Assembly (NCBI GenBank): GCA_047517145.1
Contig: JAKZTI010000073.1
Span: forward strand, 1-46,662
Reading direction: 5' to 3'
Source: Gammaproteobacteria bacterium
GTDB taxonomy: Bacteria; Pseudomonadota; Gammaproteobacteria; Eutrophobiales; Eutrophobiaceae
DNA: 46,662 bases
The notes below the pieces were generated by a model. The model saw nothing but the letters and a program-made list of their open reading frames with translations. It searched no databases and was not told where the DNA came from. Made by a program: the position numbers and the translations under genes. This document shows, piece by piece, positions 3,784-46,662 of the stretch; position 1 is the stretch's first letter, and each line of letters opens with the position of its first letter.

Positions 3784-4534
3784 GGATTTTAAGAAAGTGC
3801 AATATGCCTTTACCCGGCATATGCGCGATCCTGAAAATAATCCCGCACCAGAAGGCATAGAGGACAGACGTATCGGCGTCTATCGAGAACTGGTCTATAA
3901 CAACATAGAAGGATTTATTGCTAACAGCTTTCCAGTGTTGCGCAAGATTATACCGGATGAACAATGGCATGAGATGTTGCGCGATTATGTCTGTCATCAT
4001 CAGGCACATACACCCTTGTTTCCAAGAATGCCGCTGGAATTTATACAGTATCTTAAGACTGAGCGTGATGGACATCCGCAAGATCCGGCTTTTATGCTGG
4101 AGTTGGCGACCTACGAATGGGCAGAAATAGCTATTTCTCTGGATACCAGAGAAATTGAGTTAGATGGTATTGATGTTGACGGCGATTTATTAACAGGTAT
4201 TCCGGTACTGAATCCTATTGTCATGCCACAAACCTATCAATACCCGGTGCATCAAATCAGCCCTGACAATTTACCGGATGCGCCTCCTGAGTTACCGACT
4301 TATTTACTGGTCTACCGACGCAAGGATGATGAAGTCGGATTTCTCGAGTTAAATCCGGTTTCCGCGCGGTTGATTGAATGTATCCAGAGTAATAATGATA
4401 AAACTGGTTTACAGTTATTAGAAGGGATTGCCGAGGAACTTGATCATTCTGATCCACAGGTCGTTATCAATGGTGGCCAGGAGATTATGCGGGATATGCA
4501 TAGCAAGGATATTCTCCTTGGCGTTAGAACATAG
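3752..4534 (+). CDS. hvfC: MNIO partner protein (DUF2063), HvfC/BufC-like
   Basis: FTRHMRDP, RRIGVYRELVYNN, FPVL and LELATYEW motifs; overlaps the hvfB stop. Confidence 0.88.
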   Translation: MTTTSNSNNAEDFKKVQYAFTRHMRDPENNPAPEGIEDRRIGVYRELVYNNIEGFIANSFPVLRKIIPDEQWHEMLRDYVCHHQAHTPLFPRMPLEFIQYLKTERDGHPQDPAFMLELATYEWAEIAISLDTREIELDGIDVDGDLLTGIPVLNPIVMPQTYQYPVHQISPDNLPDAPPELPTYLLVYRRKDDEVGFLELNPVSARLIECIQSNNDKTGLQLLEGIAEELDHSDPQVVINGGQEIMRDMHSKDILLGVRT

Positions 4535-33422: not shown

Positions 33423-36119
33423 ATGGCTATGGAAATTAGACAGTCTATCGAGCAGGGGTTCACCATTGTGACGCCGACCAAGCGTCTCGGTCGGGCATTA
33501 CAGCAACAATACATTTCAGAGCAGTTATCAGCCGAAAAGAAAGTCTGGGAGACACCAGATATCCTGCCCTGGGCGGCCTGGATATTACGTAGCTGGGATG
33601 ATTTCGCAGCGCAACAACAGCAGGTTCCTCTATTACTCAACGCGCAACAACTGCAATGGGTCTGGCAAAAAATTGTTTCTGAATCCAGCTTTGCTAAAGG
33701 GTTCCTGCAACCTGCAGCCGCCGCAACCAGGGCCTATGATGCCTGGAAGATTACGCGCCAATGGCAATTGGAGCGTTTTCCAGAAGACCTCTGGCTCAAT
33801 AATGATGCCTTTGCCTTTCAATCCTGGGTTGAAACCTTTCAGCAACAATGTAAAAAACATAATTGGCTGGATGCAGCCAGTCTTGAAGGCTATTTATTAA
33901 ACGATGTCTCACAATGGGCAACACACTCTGCTGCAAAACTATGCCTGGTCGGCTTTGATGAGCTGACACCGGTTCAAGAGGCCTTACTTAAGGCCATGAA
34001 GGAAACCGGTTGCGAGATCAAACATTGTCAGGAGAATCTCGAGCCGGATCAAAGCGCAGAAATCATCAGGTCAGACTACGTTGACACAAGGCATGAAATA
34101 AAAGCCATTGCACTTTGGCTAAGAGAACAACTAAATCAAGATGCCAGTGCCTCGATCGGCATTGTCGTTCCAGAAATGGAAAGCCTGCGCACAGACATAG
34201 AAAATATTTTTGATGATGTACTCACACCCAGTAACCTTTTCAGCACTGATGGCGAGGCACACAACAATCGACCATATAATCTGTCTTTAGGACAACCCCT
34301 TTCCGAATATCCCATAATCCATGCTGCTTTTGCCATCCTTGGCCTGGAAAAGAAGGCCATCGAGCTGGAAGATCTAGGTGCCTTATTACGTTCTCCTTTC
34401 CTGGGCGGAGCAGAAACAGAAATGATCTCCCGTGCGCAACTGGATGCGCGTTTAAGAGAGCAGGGCGAACCAGCGGTCTTCCTCACCATCCTGCAAAAAT
34501 ACCTGGAGAAAGATAAATTCTGGTCGGAGCATTGTCCGCAATTGATTGCATCATTGCAGAAATGGCGTGAGGTTTTTCAAAACCTCATGAGAAAACAATC
34601 TTGCACAGAGTGGATTGAATCTTTTATTGCCTTGTTAAATACATTGGGTTGGCCGGGGGAACGCCAGATCCAGGGAGATGAATTTCAAACTATAGAAGCA
34701 TGGAAAGGATTGCTCGATCAATTTGCGTCACTGGATCTAGTCTCGGGAGATTTAACTTATAACGGTGCGCTGTCGCTATTGCAGCGCCTGGCACGCGAAC
34801 AAACCTACCAGGTAGAGTCGGAAGAAGTCCCGGTTCAGGTCATGGGTTTGCTGGAAGCCGCCGGCCTGCAGTTTGATCAACTCTGGGTTATGGGTCTGCA
34901 TGAAGAAACCTGGCCATCAACGGCCAGAGCCAACCCTTTCATCCCGATTAAATTACAAAGACAGGAAAATATGCCTCATGCCTCTGCCGAGCGTGAACTG
35001 GAATACGCACGCAGGATCACCTCGCGTTTAGCGGCATCGGCAAACAAAGTTATTTTCAGCTCACCTTTAAGTGAAGCGGGTAGAGAGCTGCGTCCAAGCC
35101 CACTGTTAAAACAATATACGTTGCAGAAAATAGAACAACCTGCAGACATTAATTATGCAGCAAGCATCTTCGACTCCAGCAAGATAGAACACTTTCATGA
35201 TGAGAGAGCACCCAAGCTTAAAGAAGCACAAGCCAGTGGTGGTACGGGTTTGTTTAAGGATCAGGCTGCCTGTCCATTCCGCGCCTTTGCCAGACATCGT
35301 CTCGGTGCCAGATCATTAGACGAGCCAGAGATTGGTTTAAGCCCGATGCAACGCGGCCAGTTAGTGCACGATTGTATGCAATTGTTCTGGGAAAAAATCA
35401 GCACCCACAAAGAACTGATCGAATTAACTGGTGGTGCACTGGCATTGCATATCAATCAGTGTGTTGCCAAAGTGATTAAACGTTTCCAGGCAAAGCGTCC
35501 GTTCACGGCGACCGCACGATTTATGCTGATTGAACAAAGCCGGCTGCAGACCATGATGCATGATTGGTTATCGCTGGAAAGAGAACGCCAACCCTTTACC
35601 GTTATCGAAAGAGAACAAAAACATTTTTGCAGCATTGAAGGTTTAAAGATTGAAATCCGCATGGATCGTGTTGATCTACTCCCTGATGGCAGTTTGATCG
35701 TGATTGACTATAAAACTGGCAGGGTTGCACTGGCAAGCTGGATGGATGAGCGTCCCGATGAACCGCAATTGCCACTCTATGCCGTCACTGCAGAAGGTAA
35801 TATTGCCGCCGTGGTCTTTGCACAAATCAGACGCGGCGAAATGAAATTTGTCGGCCTTACCGATGATGCTTACGGTGAAGAAGACAGCCCAATATTAATT
35901 CCAGAGGTAAAAACATTATCAAAATCCAGAGTCAGAGGAAGCTTTACCGATTGGGGTACCCTGTTTATGTTCTGGGAAGCCAATCTGAAAACACTTGCAA
36001 AAAATTACCGTAAAGGTGACGCGCGTGTTGATCCGCATAAAGCAAACACCTGTATGTATTGCGATCTGGGAACCTTGTGTCGCATTAATGAGCTGGTTGA
36101 GGCACCCAAAAAATTATGA
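33423..36119 (+). CDS. addB: AddB-like PD-(D/E)XK nuclease subunit
   Basis: CPFRAFA, DRVD, IDYKTG, QLPLY and C-terminal CxxC-x5-C Fe-S ligands; overlaps addA. Confidence 0.8.
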   Translation: MAMEIRQSIEQGFTIVTPTKRLGRALQQQYISEQLSAEKKVWETPDILPWAAWILRSWDDFAAQQQQVPLLLNAQQLQWVWQKIVSESSFAKGFLQPAAAATRAYDAWKITRQWQLERFPEDLWLNNDAFAFQSWVETFQQQCKKHNWLDAASLEGYLLNDVSQWATHSAAKLCLVGFDELTPVQEALLKAMKETGCEIKHCQENLEPDQSAEIIRSDYVDTRHEIKAIALWLREQLNQDASASIGIVVPEMESLRTDIENIFDDVLTPSNLFSTDGEAHNNRPYNLSLGQPLSEYPIIHAAFAILGLEKKAIELEDLGALLRSPFLGGAETEMISRAQLDARLREQGEPAVFLTILQKYLEKDKFWSEHCPQLIASLQKWREVFQNLMRKQSCTEWIESFIALLNTLGWPGERQIQGDEFQTIEAWKGLLDQFASLDLVSGDLTYNGALSLLQRLAREQTYQVESEEVPVQVMGLLEAAGLQFDQLWVMGLHEETWPSTARANPFIPIKLQRQENMPHASAERELEYARRITSRLAASANKVIFSSPLSEAGRELRPSPLLKQYTLQKIEQPADINYAASIFDSSKIEHFHDERAPKLKEAQASGGTGLFKDQAACPFRAFARHRLGARSLDEPEIGLSPMQRGQLVHDCMQLFWEKISTHKELIELTGGALALHINQCVAKVIKRFQAKRPFTATARFMLIEQSRLQTMMHDWLSLERERQPFTVIEREQKHFCSIEGLKIEIRMDRVDLLPDGSLIVIDYKTGRVALASWMDERPDEPQLPLYAVTAEGNIAAVVFAQIRRGEMKFVGLTDDAYGEEDSPILIPEVKTLSKSRVRGSFTDWGTLFMFWEANLKTLAKNYRKGDARVDPHKANTCMYCDLGTLCRINELVEAPKKL

Positions 36120-39100
36120 ATCAGGTTGCCGACAGTCAACAACGCAAGACCGCACTGAATCCAGAGCAATCTTTCATTGTGCGTGCCCCCGCGGGTTCGG
36201 GGAAAACCGAATTACTCATCCGTCGTTATCTAAGATTACTCTCCGGCGTTGAATCACCCGAAGAAATTATTGCCATTACCTTTACGCGCAAGGCCGCAGC
36301 AGAGATGCGCGGACGAATTATTTCATCACTAGAGTTAGCGCGCACGGGTGAGACACCCGCAGATGATTATCAAAAAGAAACCTATACCCTGGCGACAGAA
36401 GTACTCAAGCGAGATGAAGCGCAACAATGGCAATTGCAAGATAACCCCGGACGACTACGCATACAGACGATTGATTCATTGTGCTCAAGCATCACCCGGC
36501 AAATGCCGGTGCTCTCACAACTAGGCGCACAGCCAGAAACGCTGGAAGATGCCAGTGAACTCTATCTGGAAGCCGCTGAACGTACCATCCTGGCAATAGA
36601 GGATGGCGAGAGTTGGTCTGATTCCGTCGCTGAATTATTGGAACACCTTGATAATGACCTGCCAAGGCTGAAAAATTTAATAGCGGACATGTTAGCAAGA
36701 CGGGATCAATGGCTGCGACATATCACTAACGAAAACATCAGCCGCGAAGAACTTGATCAGGCCTTACATAATATTGTCTCTGCAACATTAAAAAGCGCAT
36801 ATGATGCGATTCCAGAAGAACTGGAACTTATCGACCTACTACAATATGCCGCAATAAACTTAATCGAAGAAGACAGTGAATCTTTGATCACAGAATGTGC
36901 CTCACTTGATTCACTGCCCGAAGCCGATCCTGCTGCCTTGTCGCAATGGCATGGCATTGCAGAATTTTTACTCACCAAACAAAACGAATGGCGTAAAAGT
37001 GTAAACAAAAACAATGGTTTTCCTGCCAGCGATAGCAAAGCAGACAAAGAGTTTGAAAAAGAACACGCTAAAAACATCAAGAGTCGTTATAAATCCCTGG
37101 TACAAACCTATGCAGAAAATGAAAACCTGTTAGACGTCCTCACCGAGATACGCTACCTGCCAGAAGTATGGGTATCCACGGATGACGTACACAGTGCCTG
37201 GCTCAATGACAGCCAATGGAAAATACTTCAGGCCTTGCCGACCTTACTGGTCATTGCTGAAGCACAATTACGGATTCTATTTTCAGAACACAGCAAGATC
37301 GATTTTACCGGTATTGAGCAATCCGCGTTACTGGCCCTCAGAGATCAGTTGGGGGATCAATCGGGAGATGATGAGCAGCCAACAGATTTGGCCTTACAAC
37401 TCGATTATCGAATTCAACATATCCTGGTGGATGAGTTTCAGGACGTCTCCGTCAGCCAGTATGATTTGTTGGAAAAACTCACCGAAGGTTGGAGCGACAA
37501 TGATGGTCGTACACTGTTTCTGGTCGGCGATCCCATGCAATCAATCTATCGCTTCCGCGAAGCAGAAGTCGGTAAGTTCCTAAGCACGTTTACCAATCAA
37601 CAGTTAGGCCAGGTCCCGTTACAGTCACTGACATTAGGTGTTAACTTTCGTTCACAACAAGGTCTTGTGACCTGGGTCAATGATGCCTTTGAAAAAATCC
37701 TCCCAAAACAGGAAGACATCGCCAACAGTGCCGTGAACTATTCGCCAGTAATTGCCGCAGATGATTCAGGCGCAGGGCAGGTGGTGATACATCCACTATT
37801 TCAAGATGATATTATGGGGACTTCATACGACACCCACCAGGAAGAAGCGAAACAGATCGTTCATACCGTCAGACAAGTTCGAAAAGAAACTAAAGATAAA
37901 GACTTGCATAAATCAATCGCCATCCTGGTACGCAGTCGACCACAACTGGATGCAATTATCGCGCATTTAAAACAAGCCGAGATCCGCTTTCAGGCAGTAG
38001 ATATAGAACGCTTAAGTCACCGTGCCGCAATTCAGGATTGCCTGGCCTTAACGCGGGCATTATTGCACCCGGCAGATCGTGTTGCCTGGTTATCTATATT
38101 ACGTGCCCCCTGGTGTGGCTTAACACTGGCCGATCTAAATGTCCTGGCCGGCAAGCAACAGGCAATACCCATCTGGTCATGTATGAATGATGAATTAAGA
38201 ATGAAAAAACTCAGTAAAGATGGCCAACAACGACTGTTGAAACTGAGAGAAGTATTAAGCAAGGTAATAGCAAACCGTAGACGTAAACCGCTGCGCCGCA
38301 TGGTTGAAATGGTCTGGATAGAAATAGGCGGACCAGCGACATTGGAAGACGCATCTGATCTGGAAAATGTTCAAACCTATTTTGATGTCTTGCAGCAAGA
38401 AGAAGAAAGCAGTGATCTTAAAACACTGGCTAAACTGGAAAAAGCTGTCGAAGGACTTTATGCCGCCGCAGATGTGCAAAGTTCGGCCGATTCAAAAGTC
38501 AATGGTGCCTCAGATGAAATGAACGTACAAATCATGACCATCCATAAAGCCAAAGGCCTGGAGTTTGATATCGTCATCCTGCCGGGGCTGGGTCGTGGCG
38601 GCAAAGCTGAGGATAAGCGTTTATTACTCTGGCAGGAACAACAAAGAAAAGATGGTGGCAACGATTTGTTACTGGCGCCCATCAAGGAGACAGGAGTCGA
38701 TGAGGACAAGTTATATTGTTATCTGGAAATGCTTGAAAAAGCCAAACTCAAAAATGAACAAGGTCGCCTGTTATATGTCGCCGCGACACGAGCAAGAGAA
38801 CAATTGCATCTATTCGGCGCGACCAAACTGGCAAAAGAAAAAAATGAAATATCTCCACCACAAAAGAATTCATTACTGGCAAAACTCTGGCCGGTGGTGG
38901 AAGCAAACTATCAATGGGTCTATACATCAGGACATGGAGATGTTGTAAAAGAAACAAATCAGCCTGCTGAAACAGAAAATCACTTTCGTCGTCACATAGC
39001 CACCTGGAAAAGACCAAAGCCACCTAACAATGTGGATTGGCAACAGAGCGAAGCAATGGTGGCAGAAACATCAGACAGTGACATTGAATTTGAATGGGCC

Positions 39101-39631
39101 ACAGAAACCATTCGGCATGTCGGTATCGTGGTACATCGCTGCATTCAACTCATGACCGAAGATCAAACGAGCTGGGATAAAAAACGAATACAAAGTCAAC
39201 GACACTGGTTCCGACAAGCACTGAAACGACAAGGCGTTGGAGAAGAAGAAAGCCACGTGGCGTGTCAACAAGTCGAAGAAGCCCTGATGAATATGATTAA
39301 AGACGAACGTGGTCAATGGTTGCTTTCCAAAGAACACCAACAACAAAAAAATGAATATACCCTAAGTGGGGTATATCAAGACAAGGTTATCAGTATTAAG
39401 ATTGATCGCACCTTTGTAGATAAAGACGGTACACGCTGGATCATTGATTATAAAACCAGTCGTCATGAGGGAACAGATATAGAGTCATTTCTTGATCTAC
39501 AACAAGAACGTTATACAGAACAGTTGGAAAAATATGGGGCTTTAATGGGGTTGCACGGCGATGAACCAGTGAAACTGGGGCTTTATTTTCCGTTATTACA
39601 AGGCTGGAGGGAGTGGGAGTATAGTAATTAG
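36116..39631 (+). CDS. addA: AddA-like UvrD helicase-nuclease
   Basis: APAGSGKT, TFTRKAA, LVDEFQD, VGDPMQSIYRFR, MTIHKAKGLEF, YVAATRA and IDYKT motifs. Confidence 0.85.
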   Translation: MNQVADSQQRKTALNPEQSFIVRAPAGSGKTELLIRRYLRLLSGVESPEEIIAITFTRKAAAEMRGRIISSLELARTGETPADDYQKETYTLATEVLKRDEAQQWQLQDNPGRLRIQTIDSLCSSITRQMPVLSQLGAQPETLEDASELYLEAAERTILAIEDGESWSDSVAELLEHLDNDLPRLKNLIADMLARRDQWLRHITNENISREELDQALHNIVSATLKSAYDAIPEELELIDLLQYAAINLIEEDSESLITECASLDSLPEADPAALSQWHGIAEFLLTKQNEWRKSVNKNNGFPASDSKADKEFEKEHAKNIKSRYKSLVQTYAENENLLDVLTEIRYLPEVWVSTDDVHSAWLNDSQWKILQALPTLLVIAEAQLRILFSEHSKIDFTGIEQSALLALRDQLGDQSGDDEQPTDLALQLDYRIQHILVDEFQDVSVSQYDLLEKLTEGWSDNDGRTLFLVGDPMQSIYRFREAEVGKFLSTFTNQQLGQVPLQSLTLGVNFRSQQGLVTWVNDAFEKILPKQEDIANSAVNYSPVIAADDSGAGQVVIHPLFQDDIMGTSYDTHQEEAKQIVHTVRQVRKETKDKDLHKSIAILVRSRPQLDAIIAHLKQAEIRFQAVDIERLSHRAAIQDCLALTRALLHPADRVAWLSILRAPWCGLTLADLNVLAGKQQAIPIWSCMNDELRMKKLSKDGQQRLLKLREVLSKVIANRRRKPLRRMVEMVWIEIGGPATLEDASDLENVQTYFDVLQQEEESSDLKTLAKLEKAVEGLYAAADVQSSADSKVNGASDEMNVQIMTIHKAKGLEFDIVILPGLGRGGKAEDKRLLLWQEQQRKDGGNDLLLAPIKETGVDEDKLYCYLEMLEKAKLKNEQGRLLYVAATRAREQLHLFGATKLAKEKNEISPPQKNSLLAKLWPVVEANYQWVYTSGHGDVVKETNQPAETENHFRRHIATWKRPKPPNNVDWQQSEAMVAETSDSDIEFEWATETIRHVGIVVHRCIQLMTEDQTSWDKKRIQSQRHWFRQALKRQGVGEEESHVACQQVEEALMNMIKDERGQWLLSKEHQQQKNEYTLSGVYQDKVISIKIDRTFVDKDGTRWIIDYKTSRHEGTDIESFLDLQQERYTEQLEKYGALMGLHGDEPVKLGLYFPLLQGWREWEYSN

Positions 39632-39670
39632 AAGAAATTTATTAGGAAATATTGGGGTGAATTACTACTT

Positions 39671-39692
39671 TTTTTAATAGTTTTGGGTCTGT
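39671..39692 (+). repeat. Left att-like site (arm + core)
   Basis: TTTTTAATAGTTTTG followed by GGTCTGT. Confidence 0.6.
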
Positions 39693-39704
39693 TTATGTAC
39701 TTGA

Positions 39705-39929
39705 ACACAGTTTGAACTCCCACAGCCCAAAACTGTAAATGATGTTATCCTTAATCGGCCCATTGAAAATGGTATTGAAATACAGCAAGTAATGAGCGAA
39801 GTTGCCAACCACTATATATCTCGCATCATGAAGGAAACGGGCAATAATATAAGCCGCGCGGCACAGTTACTTGGTCTGAATAATTATCAAACATTAAAAA
39901 ACTGGATCCGTAAATATAACATAGAATAA
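39705..39929 (+). pseudogene. 3' remnant of a sigma54 enhancer-binding protein (Fis-type HTH)
   Basis: Hand translation: FELPQPKTVNDVILNRPIENGIEIQQVMSEVANHYISRIMKETGNNISRAAQLLGLNNYQTLKNWIRKYNIE*. In-frame TGA at 39702; AAA+ domain missing; not in the ORF track. Confidence 0.8.
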
Positions 39930-39932
39930 TTC

Positions 39933-39948
39933 TGGCACGGCACTTGCT
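39933..39948 (+). promoter_or_regulatory. Sigma54 (-24/-12) promoter facing brxE
   Basis: TGGCACG-GCAC-TTGCT matches the consensus TGGCACG-N4-TTGCW; about 100 nt before the brxE start. Confidence 0.8.
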
Positions 39949-40008
39949 AAAGTATCCGTATAAAAGATTTTTAGAAGTTAAATACCTTGGTTGCATAAAA
40001 CAAGGTGG

Positions 40009-40030
40009 GGTCTGTCAAAACTATTAAAAA
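40009..40030 (+). repeat. Right att-like site (core + arm)
   Basis: GGTCTGT followed by CAAAACTATTAAAAA, the exact reverse complement of the left arm. Confidence 0.6.
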
Positions 40031-40048
40031 TTTGAATGGAGGCATTTT

Positions 40049-40549
40049 TTGTCGAACTTGGAATTAATCAGTTTGCGTGTGAGCGTTGGCTATCTAGGTG
40101 AAAAAGCACAATATGATTGGTGGCCAACGGAGTTTTTCTCAGCGACTAGCGAAGCTTTTCTTAGCCCAGTGTTCAGTAGAACAAGATTTCTCGCTCGCTA
40201 CCACGGCATTACCACGGCAGCGCGACGCCTTCATGATGAACGGGTCGGAGTCGGCCGTGTTTTCCATTTATTCCGACTGCCCGCAGTTGCAGAGCAGGCT
40301 CTTCACGAGGAATTGCTAGCTGAAAGCATTGTTAAGTCTATGCTAGCAAACACAGAATCAAAAGATGCTGCATTGGCTGCCATCGAAATGCTGGCTGACT
40401 CTTCGGTACCGACCTCCGAAGGCCCCGTTCAAATCGGCGAAACAGCAGATTTGGTAGGGGTGGACTGGATTGCCCAAGCAGCCGCTTACTATCGAGACGC
40501 TTTTAAGGGGAATAATCAGTGCTTTCCGTATCTCAAAGATCCGATTTAG
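40049..40549 (+). CDS. brxE: BrxE family protein
   Basis: LRxxVGYLGE..WW, HDER.GVG..HLFRLP and terminal FPY motifs; GGAGG RBS with TTG start; heads the brx operon. Confidence 0.78.
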   Translation: MSNLELISLRVSVGYLGEKAQYDWWPTEFFSATSEAFLSPVFSRTRFLARYHGITTAARRLHDERVGVGRVFHLFRLPAVAEQALHEELLAESIVKSMLANTESKDAALAAIEMLADSSVPTSEGPVQIGETADLVGVDWIAQAAAYYRDAFKGNNQCFPYLKDPI

Positions 40550-41334
40550 TGGTGACACCGATTTATACGACTCAGCTGCAAGCGGGTCTGGGCCTGATCG
40601 AGGTGACGCGTGATTTGTTGGACTTGTGGCAAGAAGGTATGAACACTGCTGATTTGAATCATGCGGCGTTAAGTTCAGGCCGCTTCCCCAATGTTTCGGC
40701 CAGAAGGTTGCGAAACATCGTATCCGAGTGTTTTGCGCCTCGCTATTTGGTGCCACCGGGCCCGCCTGCAATATATTTAAAGCAGTTAGCGCCAATCGTT
40801 ACCACGATGGAACTACAACAATTACTCCTTATATATACGGCTCGCGCAAACACAATATTTGCCGACTTCATTCGCGACGTTTACTGGCAGCGGTACTCGG
40901 CTGGGCTGGATTACATCGATAAAGAGCATGCCAAGCGATTCTTGCTGCAAGCTATCGATGAGGGGAAAACCAGCAAACGATGGTCGGAGAGCACAGTTAA
41001 TCGTGTATCTGGCTACTTGCTAGGGTGCTGTGCCGACTACGGATTGCTTGGTCAAAGAATTAAAAGTGGAAGAATGATGGCGTCTTTTCGAATCGATTCG
41101 CGTGTTACCGCGTATCTAGCGCACGATCTGTATTTTTCCAATCGAGGTGATAATCTCGTTGTTGTCCACGAAGACTGGGGACTGTTTGGTTTCGAAGCGT
41201 CGGATGTGCGTAACGAGCTAAAACGTGTTTCGCTCCAAGGTCATTTCATTGTTCAGACAGCCGGTGATGTGATTCAAATTGGGTGGCGTTACGAGTCATT
41301 ACAGGAGTTAGTAGATGTCCTCGCTCAACAGTGA
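40549..41334 (+). CDS. brxA: BrxA (DUF1819) protein
   Basis: YTTQLQAGLG, SARRLRN, FAPRY, WSEST and DYGLL motifs; GTG start coupled to the brxE stop. Confidence 0.8.
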   Translation: MVTPIYTTQLQAGLGLIEVTRDLLDLWQEGMNTADLNHAALSSGRFPNVSARRLRNIVSECFAPRYLVPPGPPAIYLKQLAPIVTTMELQQLLLIYTARANTIFADFIRDVYWQRYSAGLDYIDKEHAKRFLLQAIDEGKTSKRWSESTVNRVSGYLLGCCADYGLLGQRIKSGRMMASFRIDSRVTAYLAHDLYFSNRGDNLVVVHEDWGLFGFEASDVRNELKRVSLQGHFIVQTAGDVIQIGWRYESLQELVDVLAQQ

Positions 41335-41887
41335 CTTTAAAGAACTCCTTGAGCGTATTCGTCGGGGACGAGAATTCATGGATTCAAGCTTTGAGCCCAT
41401 TTACTACCTTGTCTTCAGGCCAAGCGAAATACTCGAGGTCAAACGCCAGACACCCGCTTGGATGGCCAAATTACGTAATGAGGGCTGGGAAGTACACACT
41501 TTCTCAATTGCAGAGCATGTCTCAGCTGTTCTAAAAGATTCCCCTAGACGTAGATTTTGGATTGAGCGAGATAAGCAGCATCCACTGGACTGGGAGACTA
41601 CAAATGATTCTCTGGCCGATGCATTACGCCAAGGATATTTGCAGCAGCATTTGGAAACAACGCTGTCTGAACTCGAAGGGGAAGAAAACGCGATCATACT
41701 CGTGACTGATCTCGAGGCACTGCACCCCTATCTCCGTATAGGAGCAATTGAGGCACAGTTGCAAGGCAAATTTCATGTGCCAACGGTGTTTCTGTACCCA
41801 GGCGTAAGAACGGGAAAAACGCGTCTTAAATTCCTCGGCTTTTATCCAGAGGACGGCAACTACCGATCGGTTCATGTCGGCGGTTAG
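41315..41887 (+). CDS. brxB: BrxB (DUF1788) protein
   Basis: PIYYLVF, DLEALHPYLR, FLYPG and LKFLG..DGNYRS motifs; position in the operon. Confidence 0.82.
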   Translation: MSSLNSDFKELLERIRRGREFMDSSFEPIYYLVFRPSEILEVKRQTPAWMAKLRNEGWEVHTFSIAEHVSAVLKDSPRRRFWIERDKQHPLDWETTNDSLADALRQGYLQQHLETTLSELEGEENAIILVTDLEALHPYLRIGAIEAQLQGKFHVPTVFLYPGVRTGKTRLKFLGFYPEDGNYRSVHVGG

Positions 41888-41918
41888 TAAATATACTGAT
41901 ATTAGATGGTAACTTGAT

Positions 41919-44900
41919 ATGCAAATAAGAGAAATTTTTGACTCAAGTAGGGACATTTTTCGGCCGATCGAAAAAGTTATATCTTATGGAGCGACTCAGG
42001 AACAGAGTTTGAAAAAAGAGATCTCCGAATATGTTGTCACGGAGAGCATGGAGGAGCAGCTAGAAAAGCTTCTCAAAGGTATGCAGGCCGCCATGGATCA
42101 GGGCGGTGAATATGAGATTGGTGTTTGGGTTTCCGGCTTCTATGGCTCAGGTAAGAGTTCGTTTACAAAATATCTCGCGTTAGCGCTCGACGATTCAGTA
42201 GTCGTAGAAGGTCAACCATTTTTAAAGCATTTCCAGGATCGCTGTCATAAAGCAGGTACAAAAGCGTTGCTGGGTACTCTGGCGGCGCGGTTTCCCGCTG
42301 CCGTTGTTATGTTAGACCTTGCTAGTGAGCAAATTGCTGGCGCGACACTCGTGGAGGTCTCGACAGTGCTTTACTACAAGGTACTACAATGGGCAGGATA
42401 TTCGAGAAACGTCAAAATTGCCGCTTTTGAAAGGAAGCTGAAAAAAGACGGAAGGTATGAGGAGTTCCAGAAGCTATTTCAGGATGAAGTGAAGGAACCT
42501 TGGACCGAGTGTCAAAATGATCAACTTGTGGCCGATAGTGTGTTACCAAAAATCGCTCATCAACTCTACCCAACCATGTTTGAAACTCCACAATCTTTTA
42601 CAACAACAAGCACCGACATTATTTATCTCATGGATGACCGAGTACAAGAAATGCTCGATATTGTTCACGAGCATTCTGGTAAGGAAAATGTACTCTTCGT
42701 AATCGATGAAGTAGGCCAATATGTCGGTAGTAACCAAAATAAAATATTGGATCTACAGGGACTGGCGGAGAACTTTAAGAATATTGGCAATGGTAAAGTA
42801 TGGTTAATTAATACTGCGCAACAGACGCTGACCGAAGACGATCCTCAAGTTGCAATCAATTCGCCTCAACTTTACAAGTTAAAAGATCGCTTCCCCATTT
42901 CAGTGAATCTAAAGTCACAAGATATCAAGGAGATTTGTTTTCGCCGATTGCTAGGCAAATCGCCGGAGGGTGTCACAACATTAGAGGAGCGATTTCAACA
43001 GCACGGCCAGGCTTTGCGCCATAATACAAAGCTTGAAGACGCCAAATTCTATGACTCAAACTTTGGCGAAGAGGAATTTATTAATCTCTATCCGTTTCTA
43101 CCAGCCCATTTCGATATTCTGCTTTATCTCCTTGGCCAATTGGCAAAGTCAACGGGCGGCGTTGGATTACGTTCGGCGATCAAGGTCATTCAGGACATAC
43201 TAGTCGACAACGAACACGGGCGAATACCGGCGGCGGATTGCCTTATTGGCTGGCTTGCTACCACCGTTACGCTCTATGATTCGCTCGAACGCGACATAGA
43301 ACGGGCTTGCTCTCCCGAGTATCAAGCAGTCGGCAAAGTAATGATTCGTTATCCAGATTCTCAGTTACATCAGGATATCGCAAAAACAATTGCGGTACTT
43401 CAAATTCTTGGAAATCTGCCGATAACTAAGGTAAATGTTGCCGGATTGATGCATGCGAAAATTTCGGACTCATCACGTTTGGAGGAAATTCAGGTTGCAA
43501 TTGATGAAATGTTGGGTGATGCGATCGTGCCGTTGGGAGAAACCGATGGTTCGATCAGTTTTCACAGCGAAAAGCTCACTGATATCGCACAAGAACGGGG
43601 GCAAATCCCGCTAAGAAATGCTGACGCAAGGCGAATCTTCAATGATTCATTGAGAGAGTTGTTTACACCAGCGCACGAAAGTGCAAGTTCACATATCATT
43701 AGGCGTTTCCACAGGAATTAAATCGCAGAAAGGTGCTCAAGTCATTAGTTTATCGGGGGAACGAGAACCCATTCAGACGGTGATTCAGTTTGCAGATGAC
43801 GCGGATTTTGAGACGGATAAATCGAGCCTCGTGAGTGAATCTCGCGAACGCTCTTCGTTGCAAGTTATCTACTTGCTGGGCCAAAGTGCCGCTGATGCCG
43901 ATACGATGGTAATGGAAATCTATCGCTGCGAACGGATTGCTGAAGCTCACCGAAGCGATCCCGATCAAGAGGTTAGAGATTACTGCATCAGTCAAACTGA
44001 TAGAGCAACCAAGCTAAAAAAAGACCTGCAACAAAAATTAGAACGAGGTCTCAAACGCGGTGCATATGTCTTTCGAGGGCAGTCCACTGCCGTCAACGCA
44101 TTGGACAGCGAATTGACACAAGCGACCAAACTGCAGTTGTCGGCAGCCGCAACAGAAATATTTGATCGATATCCGGATGCCGCTGTTCGGGCTGAGACAA
44201 ACGTTGCGGAAAGATTCCTGCGTCTAGAGAACCTGAATGCCGTAACGTCACAGATTGATCCACTTGGACTGGTCGAAAAAGATGGCGGCAGCTTTAAGGT
44301 CAATACAGATCATGCCGCGATTATTGGTATTAGAAACTACATCGATCGAACAGGGACAATTGAAGGTAAGCGACTTCAAGAGCACTTTGGTGGAGCACCG
44401 TTTGGGTGGTCTCCAGACACGGTACGATACGTTGTAGCGGCGATGCTAATGACAGGGGAAGTAAAAGTTCGTATCAGTGGTAATGAGGTCACGGCTGCCG
44501 GTCAACAAGCGATCGATGCACTAAAGACCAATAACACTTTCAAAAACATTGGTATTTTACTGCGGGATGATCGGCCCTCAAATGAAGTAGTTTCGAAAGC
44601 TGCCGAGAGATTAACGGATTTGACGGGCGAGAATGTTGTACCGCTAGAGCAAAATATCAGTCAGACTGCTGCTAAGCATCTTCCGCAGGTAAACCAAAAG
44701 ATTGCTTCTTTACCACAAAAACTTGATGACTTGGCCATACCGGGCGGGGATAAGATAGCCGGGGCCGCTCAGGAAATTGCCGACCTTTTATTGACCGATG
44801 CCTCTGATGCTCCGTTTGTCTTGGGCAAGGAAGAATCAAATTTGTACGAGACGGTGATATGGGCACTAGCGGTCAAGAAGAGTTTGGATCAGGGCCTGGA

Positions 44901-45531
44901 GTCGACCATTAGCGCTGTGCGGAAGCATCAAAAGGAAATAGAAGCGCTTCCAGATAAAGGAACACCGGGTCAGCTCAAAAGCGATGTCGAAGACGAAATG
45001 CAACAGATAGATTCGCGTCTGGCGGCGGATGATTTTTATAAGCACGGTGCAGACCTGAGTACGCTGCTCACAGGTTTGAAATCAAAAGTGAATAATGCTG
45101 CATCGAACCTCATCAGCGAACAGCAGGATCGTGTGCGTGCAGCAGAGAAAGACCTGGAACGTTTGTCCGAGTGGGATGAGCTGACCAAAGAAGAGCAAAA
45201 TAACGTGCTCAACCAAATCGACGAACTGCACATCGAAGTCGAGACTGATCTCGAAGGCTTGCGACGATTGGTCTGTCACGAGTTCGATGTTCAATCAAGT
45301 ATTGCCGAATTGAAGGCGCGGGTTATTGAGGAAGGCCAAGAAAGGCGTCGTAAACGCGTTGAGAGAGAAAAGGGTAAGAAAGACGGCGATGCTAAAGAGC
45401 ACAGAGTTGTAAACGTTCCAGAGGTGATTTCGGATTTAGAGGAACTCGAGCAGATCATCAAGGCGCTCGAAAAGGTTAAGGCGGAAATGACCTACTTCGA
45501 TTCCTTCGAAATCCGAATTGAGAAGGAGTAA
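41919..45531 (+). pseudogene. brxC: BrxC P-loop ATPase split by a +1 frameshift near 43675
   Basis: ORF 41919-43721 carries WVSGFYGSGKS, LFVIDEVGQY and YPF. ORF 43681-45531 carries PFGW and a coiled-coil tail. Removing one base at about 43675 joins them into roughly 1200 aa. Confidence 0.82.
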
Positions 45532-45541
45532 GTGCGTCGTC

Positions 45542-46662
45542 ATGGCCTTCGATCAGACTACTCGTAAGCAGCTTCAGGACTTCGTTCATGCTGCCCGAAC
45601 GTTGCTCACGGATGAGTTCACACGGCAGCTGCAGCAGAACCATGGATTGGATCCGGAGACTGGGGATGTCACTGAACTTGAGACGCTCACACACCTTGAC
45701 GATCATACCTTTGAAATAGCTAGTCTACTCAGAGAAATCATGGCCCATTACGAGGCATCTGACATGGTGTCAGGACAAGAAGGACAGAAATTCGTTCTAA
45801 ATCGAATCGCTAGAGAGCAAGCGTTCACCGTTTTAAATCGACTCGTTGCATTTCGCATGATGGAGACGCGAGGATTACTGCGGCAATCCGTTGGGAGTGG
45901 ATTTCAATCGGAAGGATTCCAACTCTATGAGCGTCTCGCAGGCCGCGGACTGGGGGATACAGGCGAGGCCTATCAAGTTTTTTTATTCAGCCTCTTCGAT
46001 GAATTTTCGCAAGAGATGCCACAACTATTTGACCGATACTCTGCACACGGACAGCTCTTTCCCCGCGAGCGGGCACTGGTCGATCTGCTGGTTTTGATTA
46101 ATGCGACACACCTCGAGCATTTATGGGCGGAGGATGAAACCATCGGTTGGATTTATCAATACTTTAATTCGGCCGAAGAACGCAAAAAGATGCGGGACGA
46201 AGGCAAATCCGGCCCGCGCAACAGTCGAGAATTGGCCGTTCGCAATCAGTTTTTCACACCAAGATATGTTGTGGAGTTCCTGGTAGACAATTCACTCGGC
46301 CGCCAGTGGTACAACTACACAGGTGGTGAGTCCGCCATATTCGATAAATGCCAGTATCTGTTGGTCAAACCGGATGATCCAAAACCGGAGCAACCCGAGC
46401 TTTTGCCAGACCCTCGCGGTATTCGATTGTTAGACCCTGCTTGCGGTTCCATGCATTTCGGCCTTTATGCTTATGACCTCTTTGAGTTAATTTACAAAGA
46501 AGCCTGGGCGGCGGAACATGACAAAGGAGCCGACAAACTTAGAAGAGAGGACGGCATTGAACCACTCACACAGGTTTATCAATCTGAGCAGGATTTTCTC
46601 ACCGACCTGCCCCGACTCATTCTGAATCACAATATCTTTGGCGTTGAAATTGATTCCAGAGC
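45542..46662 (+). CDS. pglX: PglX/BrxX adenine DNA methyltransferase (runs off window)
   Basis: Hand translation MAFDQTTRKQL..., AFTVLNRL, IGWIYQYF, NQFFTPRYVV, LDPACGSMHF, NIFGVEID. Absent from the ORF track because no stop occurs in the window. Confidence 0.9.
   Translation, partial: MAFDQTTRKQLQDFVHAARTLLTDEFTRQLQQNHGLDPETGDVTELETLTHLDDHTFEIASLLREIMAHYEASDMVSGQEGQKFVLNRIAREQAFTVLNRLVAFRMMETRGLLRQSVGSGFQSEGFQLYERLAGRGLGDTGEAYQVFLFSLFDEFSQEMPQLFDRYSAHGQLFPRERALVDLLVLINATHLEHLWAEDETIGWIYQYFNSAEERKKMRDEGKSGPRNSRELAVRNQFFTPRYVVEFLVDNSLGRQWYNYTGGESAIFDKCQYLLVKPDDPKPEQPELLPDPRGIRLLDPACGSMHFGLYAYDLFELIYKEAWAAEHDKGADKLRREDGIEPLTQVYQSEQDFLTDLPRLILNHNIFGVEIDSR

Follow-up and report, generated by a model that had tools for sequence, protein, structure and literature searches.

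The 46,662-nt stretch of gammaproteobacterial DNA analysed here (the window) carries a sigma-54 promoter ahead of a BREX operon, and short inverted and direct repeats bracket this promoter on both sides. The layout raises the question of whether the bracket is a recombination device acting on the promoter, as an earlier note on this DNA considered, or the trace of an event of another kind. The bracket consists of the following elements:

39671-39685, + strand: left arm, TTTTTAATAGTTTTG, read from the sequence and recovered by the repeat search
39685-39692, + strand: left copy of the direct repeat, GGGTCTGT, the first G of which is common to the left arm
40008-40015, + strand: right copy of the direct repeat, GGGTCTGT
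40016-40030, + strand: right arm, CAAAACTATTAAAAA, the exact reverse complement of TTTTTAATAGTTTTG

In the window sequence the inverted 15-nt arms are both perfect and are spaced 330 nt apart. GGTCTGT lies directly 3' of the left arm (39686-39692) and directly 5' of the right arm (40009-40015), so that a direct repeat of 7 nt, or 8 nt with the preceding G, adjoins the inner side of each arm. The repeat ends there, the next base outward being T39684 on one side and G40007 on the other. The two cores are 323 nt apart from core to core, with 316 nt between them. This geometry is as the earlier note had described it: direct cores of 7-8 bp, perfect 15-bp inverted arms and a 323-bp interval.

The arrangement is unlikely to have originated by chance. 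The 15-nt pair is the sole exact inverted repeat of at least 12 nt with arms no more than 600 nt apart in the whole 46.7-kb window, and when the window was simulated 300 times with a first-order Markov model, 12 of the simulated sequences had any exact 15-nt inverted repeat within 600 nt. At the local base composition, a 7-nt direct repeat would adjoin both arms by chance with a probability of ~1.2e-4, which together with the arms gives a joint chance of roughly 0.04 x 1e-4. Additional local partners of each arm (85-86% over 13-14 nt) were discounted, their quality being that of unrelated pairs in the repeat list. The feature is real and non-random, and it sits at the edge of a decaying anti-phage island, the likely left boundary of which falls within the gene preceding the bracket:

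36116-39631, + strand: addA (UvrD-type helicase and PD-(D/E)XK nuclease), identified by Pfam
39373-39417, + strand: addA-derived segment of ~45 nt, a likely left attachment-type junction, identified from assembly contigs

The segment 39373-39417 is repeated in direct orientation ~16.19 kb downstream, where 32 nt are exact (39386-39417). This repeat is visible in contigs from two runs of two studies, X19 and X23, one of the runs possibly being the source sample. In X19 the 32-nt node 39386-39417 has a depth of 90, versus 42.9-49.8 for the three contigs that meet there, and the 16171-nt contig of X23 reads 39431-42000, then 13558 more letters, and after them 39373-39415 again, with 1 mismatch. 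The 16.19-kb unit opens with the final 214 nt of addA (after 39417); the bracket comes next, ~250 nt inside the unit, and is followed by the BREX operon. Islands that have integrated in a gene's 3' end are marked by such a layout, here a ~45-nt repeat flanking a 16.2-kb unit, and 39373-39417 is likely the left attachment-type junction of this BREX island. The right end of the island, ~9 kb past the contig, is absent from the assembly, and the 30-letter loose-end consensus was not found in the window's own genome.

Comparison with relatives revealed further activity at the same position. Six genomes of the same genus and three of the same family align to addA only up to ~39622, and the sequence beyond addA differs in 9 of the 9 relatives inspected, with G006 and G008 carrying similar sequence there. 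Duplicated addA 3' pieces occur in three relatives as well as in the runs:

L139 (G006:C132), 1166-1467 and 4230-4531: addA 3' copies of G006
L140 (G008:C50), 1-167 and 2016-2182: addA 3' copies of G008, the second partial and 96% identical

The second copy in G006 (302 nt, 77% identical to the first) lies 2.8 kb downstream, and AbiEi, AbiEii and a CDP-alcohol phosphatidyltransferase gene are found between the two copies. In G001 the duplication is limited to a blast segment of the addA end that recurs ~90 nt past the first one. Together these comparisons show that defence cargo has repeatedly integrated at the addA 3' end in the genus, in agreement with the integration hotspot after addA proposed in the earlier note. 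The addA 3' direct repeat around the 16.2-kb BREX unit, the second, diverged addA 3' copies of the relatives and the AbiE cargo of G006 all resemble known islands that integrate in gene 3' ends and bring a replacement gene end. The locus differs from them in that no integrase was seen here, where the assembly stops short of the island's right end; the duplicated length also varies between genomes, from at least 45 nt here to 302 nt in G006.

Downstream of the bracket the window contains the first genes of the BREX operon:

40038-40042, + strand: ribosome-binding site GGAGG, 6 nt before a TTG start, read from the sequence
40049-40549, + strand: 166-aa gene that opens the BREX operon, assigned to no Pfam or PADLOC family
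40519-41334, + strand: brxA (Pfam; PADLOC E 2.7e-109)
41315-41887, + strand: brxB (Pfam, PADLOC)
41919-45531, + strand: brxC, split in two overlapping frames, 41919-43721 and 43681-45531 (PADLOC)
45518-46660, + strand: N-terminal part of pglX, which runs off the contig (PADLOC E 1.2e-161)

The right arm sits in the leader of this operon, 18 nt before the start codon. The label brxE, which the earlier note had given to 40049-40549, could not be confirmed. Of 400 other genomes of the class, 2 have a homologue of this 166-aa gene, with 44-50% identity, immediately before BrxA (L025 5732-6244 and L024 5838-6350), and a search of genome_contigs for related loci of the 166-aa protein gave 601 pattern matches, of which 0 were confirmed. 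The frameshift in brxC, near 43681-43721, leaves halves of 600 aa and 616 aa that match positions 3-588 and 592-1208 of the 1212 positions of the PADLOC BrxC profile; in G061 one uninterrupted ORF of 1213 aa encodes the homologue. The split reflects either a genuine frameshift or an error in the assembly. A PglZ family search of the window's own genome returned no match, which places the rest of the BREX system outside the assembly. No sigma-54 motif was found upstream of the distant BREX relatives in G138 and G061, and in G061 the member of the 166-aa gene family has a WYL regulator ahead of it in place of a sigma-54 module. In the G061 locus (L143 7457-8859), one gene with a DuOB domain and one with DUF488 also separate pglX from pglZ, and a UvrD-like helicase separates brxC from pglX.

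The interior of the bracket comprises the 3' end of an activator gene, a promoter and a leader of ~60 nt:

39705-39929, + strand: 5'-truncated remnant of an RtcR-like sigma-54 activator gene, identified by translation, Pfam HTH_8 and homologues
39933-39948, + strand: sigma-54 promoter TGGCACG-N4-TTGCT, with perfect -24 and -12 elements, beginning 4 nt after the stop codon

The remnant frame has 74 open codons (39705-39926) and ends at a TAA stop (39927-39929). Upstream it is closed by an in-frame TGA at 39702-39704, and its first in-frame ATG, GTG or TTG is the ATG at 39792. Pfam detects a Fis-type HTH_8 domain in the 74-aa frame (E 3.7e-6), and an exhaustive HMMER search returned 387 homologues at E <=1e-3, the best with 57% identity, all 387 of which aligned to the frame at their C-terminal ends. 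The alignment to full-length activators extends to query residue 3. All 7 of the invariant family residues are kept in the remnant (alignment A1), which means either that the truncation is recent or that the piece is under selection. A separate search for longer proteins homologous to the 74-aa frame found none. When the five longest homologues (333-503 aa) were scanned, four carried Sigma54_activat, AAA_lid_14 and HTH_8, the HTH_8 match being absent at that threshold from the fifth, P0009; one of the five, P0041, also has an RtcR N-domain above the Pfam cut-off (24.5 versus 23.1 bits). The sensor and ATPase domains are missing from the 74 codons left here, and 39705-39929 is a remnant of an activator and not a functional member of the family.

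The sigma-54 promoter claimed in the earlier note is present at 39933-39948 and has gcac as its spacer (TGGCACG-gcac-TTGCT). The accompanying proposal of a self-contained promoter module did not survive: the interior is the decayed 3' end of an RtcR-like activator together with the promoter that normally follows that gene, not a designed promoter cassette. The window's own genome encodes rpoN and 7 full-length sigma-54 activators, the closest match to the activator tail having 33-35% identity. Because the activator is truncated and the assembly holds no close paralogue, the promoter is probably orphaned, having lost its activator, and would be expected to be silent. The same two observations and the frameshift in brxC indicate that the BREX locus is decaying.

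To place the remnant among its relatives, alignment A1, consisting of 17 homologues and the window frame, was used to retrieve 80 metagenome loci (L059-L138). The frame is at least 380 aa long, and typically ~500 aa, in 64 of the 80; 12 others are short through a contig end, and in four (L066, L082, L093, and L118) the frame is cut short by an upstream stop within the locus. Promoters were scored with the motif TGG[CT]A[CT]-N5-[TC]TGC[AT] within 400 nt after the stop codon. This -24/-12 motif was present in 37 of 80 loci, and it starts 1-4 nt after the stop in 23 of 80. In such an arrangement the enhancer must lie within the activator's own coding region. The first downstream ORF was sought in 37 loci, 29 of the 37 that bear a promoter and 8 without the motif. 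It was found in 34, and 24 of these ORFs were scanned with Pfam:

13 of 24 loci: HsdR-type gene (ResIII and HSDR_N)
5 of 24 loci: AAA_15/AAA_21 ATPase (OLD-type), 3 of them with DUF3696
1 of 24 loci: N6_Mtase and Methylase_S
1 of 24 loci: SNF2 helicase
1 of 24 loci: VWA
1 of 24 loci: Nucleotidyltransferase
1 of 24 loci: YhcG nuclease
1 of 24 loci: BrxA (L085)

AAA+ and HTH domains were present in all five full-length activators scanned from these loci; the L085 activator showed a weak RtcR N-domain match (18.7 bits, below the Pfam cut-off). A passage of Makarova et al. 2014 (PMC4012209) predicts RtcR-like sigma-54 activators, with a divergent CARF, AAA+ and HTH architecture, that are tied to restriction-modification systems. 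The window shares several properties with such systems. Its 74-aa frame is the C-terminal HTH of such a protein, its relatives of ~500 aa precede HsdR-type, OLD-type ATPase, methylase and BrxA genes, and the -24/-12 promoter follows right after the stop codon. It differs in that the Sigma54_activat AAA+ domain and the N-terminal sensor domain are absent from the window.

The bracket itself is not part of this activator-promoter module. We defined the equivalent position as the last 330 nt of the activator gene to the first 160 nt past the promoter. Across the 78 related loci whose flanks were long enough, exact inverted repeats there reach no more than 10 nt (4 loci), so that 0 of 78 have one of at least 11 nt, versus 15 nt in the window. 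Nor is there anything comparable to the bracket at the four loci with truncated activators, L066, L082, L093 and L118.

A bracket that recombines may leave traces in the form of an empty site, further site copies or alternative joints, and the empty junction and additional arm copies that the earlier note proposed to look for were found neither in the window's own genome nor in 125 family genomes or the contig collections. The 386-nt region is present once in its own genome. At 0 mismatches the arms occur genome-wide only as the two window copies, and none of the arm matches with 1-2 mismatches in that genome is preceded or followed by the core. Exact searches gave 0 matches to the left junction 22-mer in genome_contigs and viral_contigs, and 0 to the right junction 22-mer in metagenome_contigs and viral_contigs. 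The 125 other genomes of the family gave 10 junction matches (9 genomes) at up to 3 mismatches, versus 11 for the reversed control, and none of the 10 continues into the other arm. No DNA similarity to the region was detected in plasmids or phages.

Contigs from the two runs were equally uniform. One of 9848 nt from X19 and the 16171-nt contig from X23 span the entire bracket, with the filled form unbroken. These are Logan contigs, which drop rare variants, and within them there is one orientation and no joint that skips or flips the interior. At a single base, 39699, the X19 and X23 contigs both depart from the window (A>T); this base is one of the 12 nt that separate the left core from the activator remnant. 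Run X1, a sponge metagenome with a depth of 2-5, has no contig over 39578-40315 and is uninformative.

The whole genome contains 8 matches to Phage_integrase (PF00589), 0 of which are on C73, the contig of the window, and no recombinase was found among the family-scanned ORFs from 33423 on. The statement in the earlier note that the window holds no recombinase gene stands to this extent, as it was checked only in part, over PF00589 on C73 and over the ORFs from 33423 on. The inner flanks of the cores match the arms at 6 of 15 positions each (background P of at least 6 matches = 0.21), and 5 of 15 positions are complementary between one flank and the other. As the inner flanks are unlike the arms, a reaction between attL and attR would miss two of its four binding sites.

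These observations bear directly on the idea of a working recombination switch that sets BREX expression in a subpopulation, either by excision via the cores or by inversion via the arms. The earlier note had raised such a switch, and it found no support: the inner half-sites are absent, and because no empty site, no further arm copies and no bracket in the 78 related loci were found, most of what would count against that proposal is in place. We consider a working switch of either kind unlikely. For excision, the arm-core units would be attL and attR, and a distant recombinase would delete the 323-nt promoter piece and so toggle BREX. The direct 7-8-nt cores and symmetric outer arms, of lox-like length, do give a lox- or FRT-like geometry in the deduced empty site and recall attL/attR pairs such as CIME-type relics. 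The Phage_integrase-family matches lie on other contigs of the genome, and by our size estimate ~1.2 kb of the island beyond the contig is unaccounted for and could hold a recombinase. However, real attL/attR pairs have inner half-sites, a cognate recombinase and an empty site, whereas here the inner flanks resemble the arms and each other so little, exact searches of the contig collections gave no empty-site junction, the family-genome matches stay at control level, and no joint crosses the element in the X19 and X23 contigs. The element is, moreover, just 316 nt of decayed cargo, a pseudogene fragment and a promoter without its activator, and live excision seems to us very improbable.

Inversion is scarcely easier to reconcile with the locus. 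Inverted repeats that enclose a promoter facing an operon are the standard layout of an inverton, as in fimS, and the perfect repeats 330 nt apart around a promoter that faces BREX fit this layout, as they do that of the invertible promoters of gut bacteria, in which inverted repeats also lie a few hundred nt apart before an operon. In such a scheme the 15-nt repeats would be invertase crossover sites that flip the 330-nt segment and make BREX phase-variable. But inversion leaves the 8-nt direct repeat abutting both arms unexplained, and the window differs from known invertible promoters in having this extra repeat and a sigma-54-dependent promoter with a broken activator. No invertase was identified nearby among the ORFs scanned from 33423 on, the window's contig has no Phage_integrase-family match, and the arms are common to no other site in the genome. 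A mixed population should also break 31-mer contigs at a 15-nt repeat, yet the contigs of both runs are unbroken and in one orientation. We regard an inverton as very unlikely. Were a live switch of either sort real, it would amount to recombinational on/off control of a BREX promoter, of which we found no description in the titles and abstracts covered by our literature search.

Two further explanations were considered. The module may always have been the regulator of this BREX operon and have decayed in situ, a deletion having taken the first ~1.3 kb of the activator gene and the left arm-core unit having been made at the deletion junction by template switching or by patch repair from the leader. 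Regulator followed by operon is the rule among the related loci (64 of 80 with a full-length frame), and full-length relatives directly precede defence operons, including one with BrxA (L085). A strand-switch copy, however, would give the arm with a reverse-complement core, and the core observed is in the same sense, so that a second switch or a chance identity of 7 nt would be needed. The distance from stop to start is also 120 nt here, versus mostly 28-89 nt in 26 relatives when their earliest possible starts are taken. Decay in situ is possible in our judgement, but doubtful. The arms might alternatively function as nucleic-acid structure, by pairing in RNA that reads through from addA or by looping the DNA as operators, and so insulate or repress the BREX leader, in which the right arm lies. 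Their duplex has an energy of -12.8 kcal/mol. In the minimum-free-energy fold of 39640-40060, however, they are not paired with each other, this fold is no stabler than those of shuffled sequences (z = 0.74, with 78 of 100 shuffles at least as good), and no Rfam family was assigned. A search of 39000-40600 against Rfam (E <=1) did give two sub-threshold matches to eukaryotic families, mir-957 and snR64, which we treated as noise. Such a function would leave the direct repeat unexplained, and we hold it to be highly improbable.

The reading that we prefer, with a confidence that is no more than even, is that the bracket records an old insertion, accompanied by a 7-8-bp duplication, and is a fossil scar, not a working device. 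A 37-bp palindrome, made up of a 15-nt arm, the 7-nt loop GGTCTGT and the second 15-nt arm, would once have stood just past the end of the island-borne addA, where it may have served as a weak hairpin terminator or insulator. The palindrome would then have opened in its loop and taken in DNA, with the loop copied on both sides as a duplication of target-site type. This could have happened through a staggered cut of the loop or cruciform followed by fill-in, or through a site-specific insertion that has long since decayed; the two routes are indistinguishable here. What is left today would be the 316 nt with the activator 3' end, the promoter and the ~60-nt leader. We infer a one-step insertion with duplication, and favour it because one event covers both the perfect outer arms and the presence of the same 8 nt inside each of them. 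Two of the alternatives that the earlier note had listed, a shrunken relic and an 8-bp target duplication inside a hairpin, are those that fit best.

In favour of the scar reading, the bracket contains a pseudogene tail and an orphaned promoter, lacks inner half-sites and has arms that are unique, and the contigs run across it unbroken. The left junction of the bracket lies within 12 nt of the point at which the activator is truncated (the frame opens at 39705). Consistent with a scar, the 78 related loci show no bracket, the interior is single-copy in its own genome, and brxC is split. Several observations speak against it. The insert has neither terminal inverted repeats nor a transposase that would point to a specific mechanism of insertion, and the prior existence of the palindrome is deduced, as an uninterrupted copy was found nowhere in the searches. 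In the empty state deduced in this way, moreover, ~95 nt would separate addA from the BREX operon and no promoter would be evident for the latter, an odd design. Since modules of the L085 type head BREX operons, the promoter may instead be ancestral to the operon, and this is a poor fit with simple capture of a fragment. The intact set of 7 invariant residues in the remnant, pointing to recent truncation or to selection, counts against the scar reading as well.

The closest parallel to the proposed scar is the insertion of IS or MITE elements in REP or terminator palindromes. There, as here, a 7-8-bp direct repeat abuts the insert on both sides, and the flanks re-form a perfect palindrome once the insert and one copy of the repeat are removed. 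The window insert differs from those elements in having no terminal inverted repeats (its ends are complementary at 5 of 15 positions), no transposase and no other copies, and in that its content is a gene fragment with a promoter.

In itself a scar of this kind would carry little weight. It documents the remodelling of a defence island, in which a palindrome at its edge was probably split by a piece of a regulator module, a regulator was lost and brxC was broken. Its context is of more use. With the remnant, the class of RtcR-like sigma-54 activators predicted in 2014, which stand at the head of anti-phage operons, gains a decayed representative, and defence cargo is seen to land repeatedly at the addA 3' end in the genus.

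The best homologue of the tail, P0001 (203 aa, 57% identity), is a chimeric ORF. Its ~130 N-terminal residues form an M24 peptidase domain, which is followed directly by the activator C-terminus. This chimera hints that truncated tails of the activator family recur beside other broken genes.
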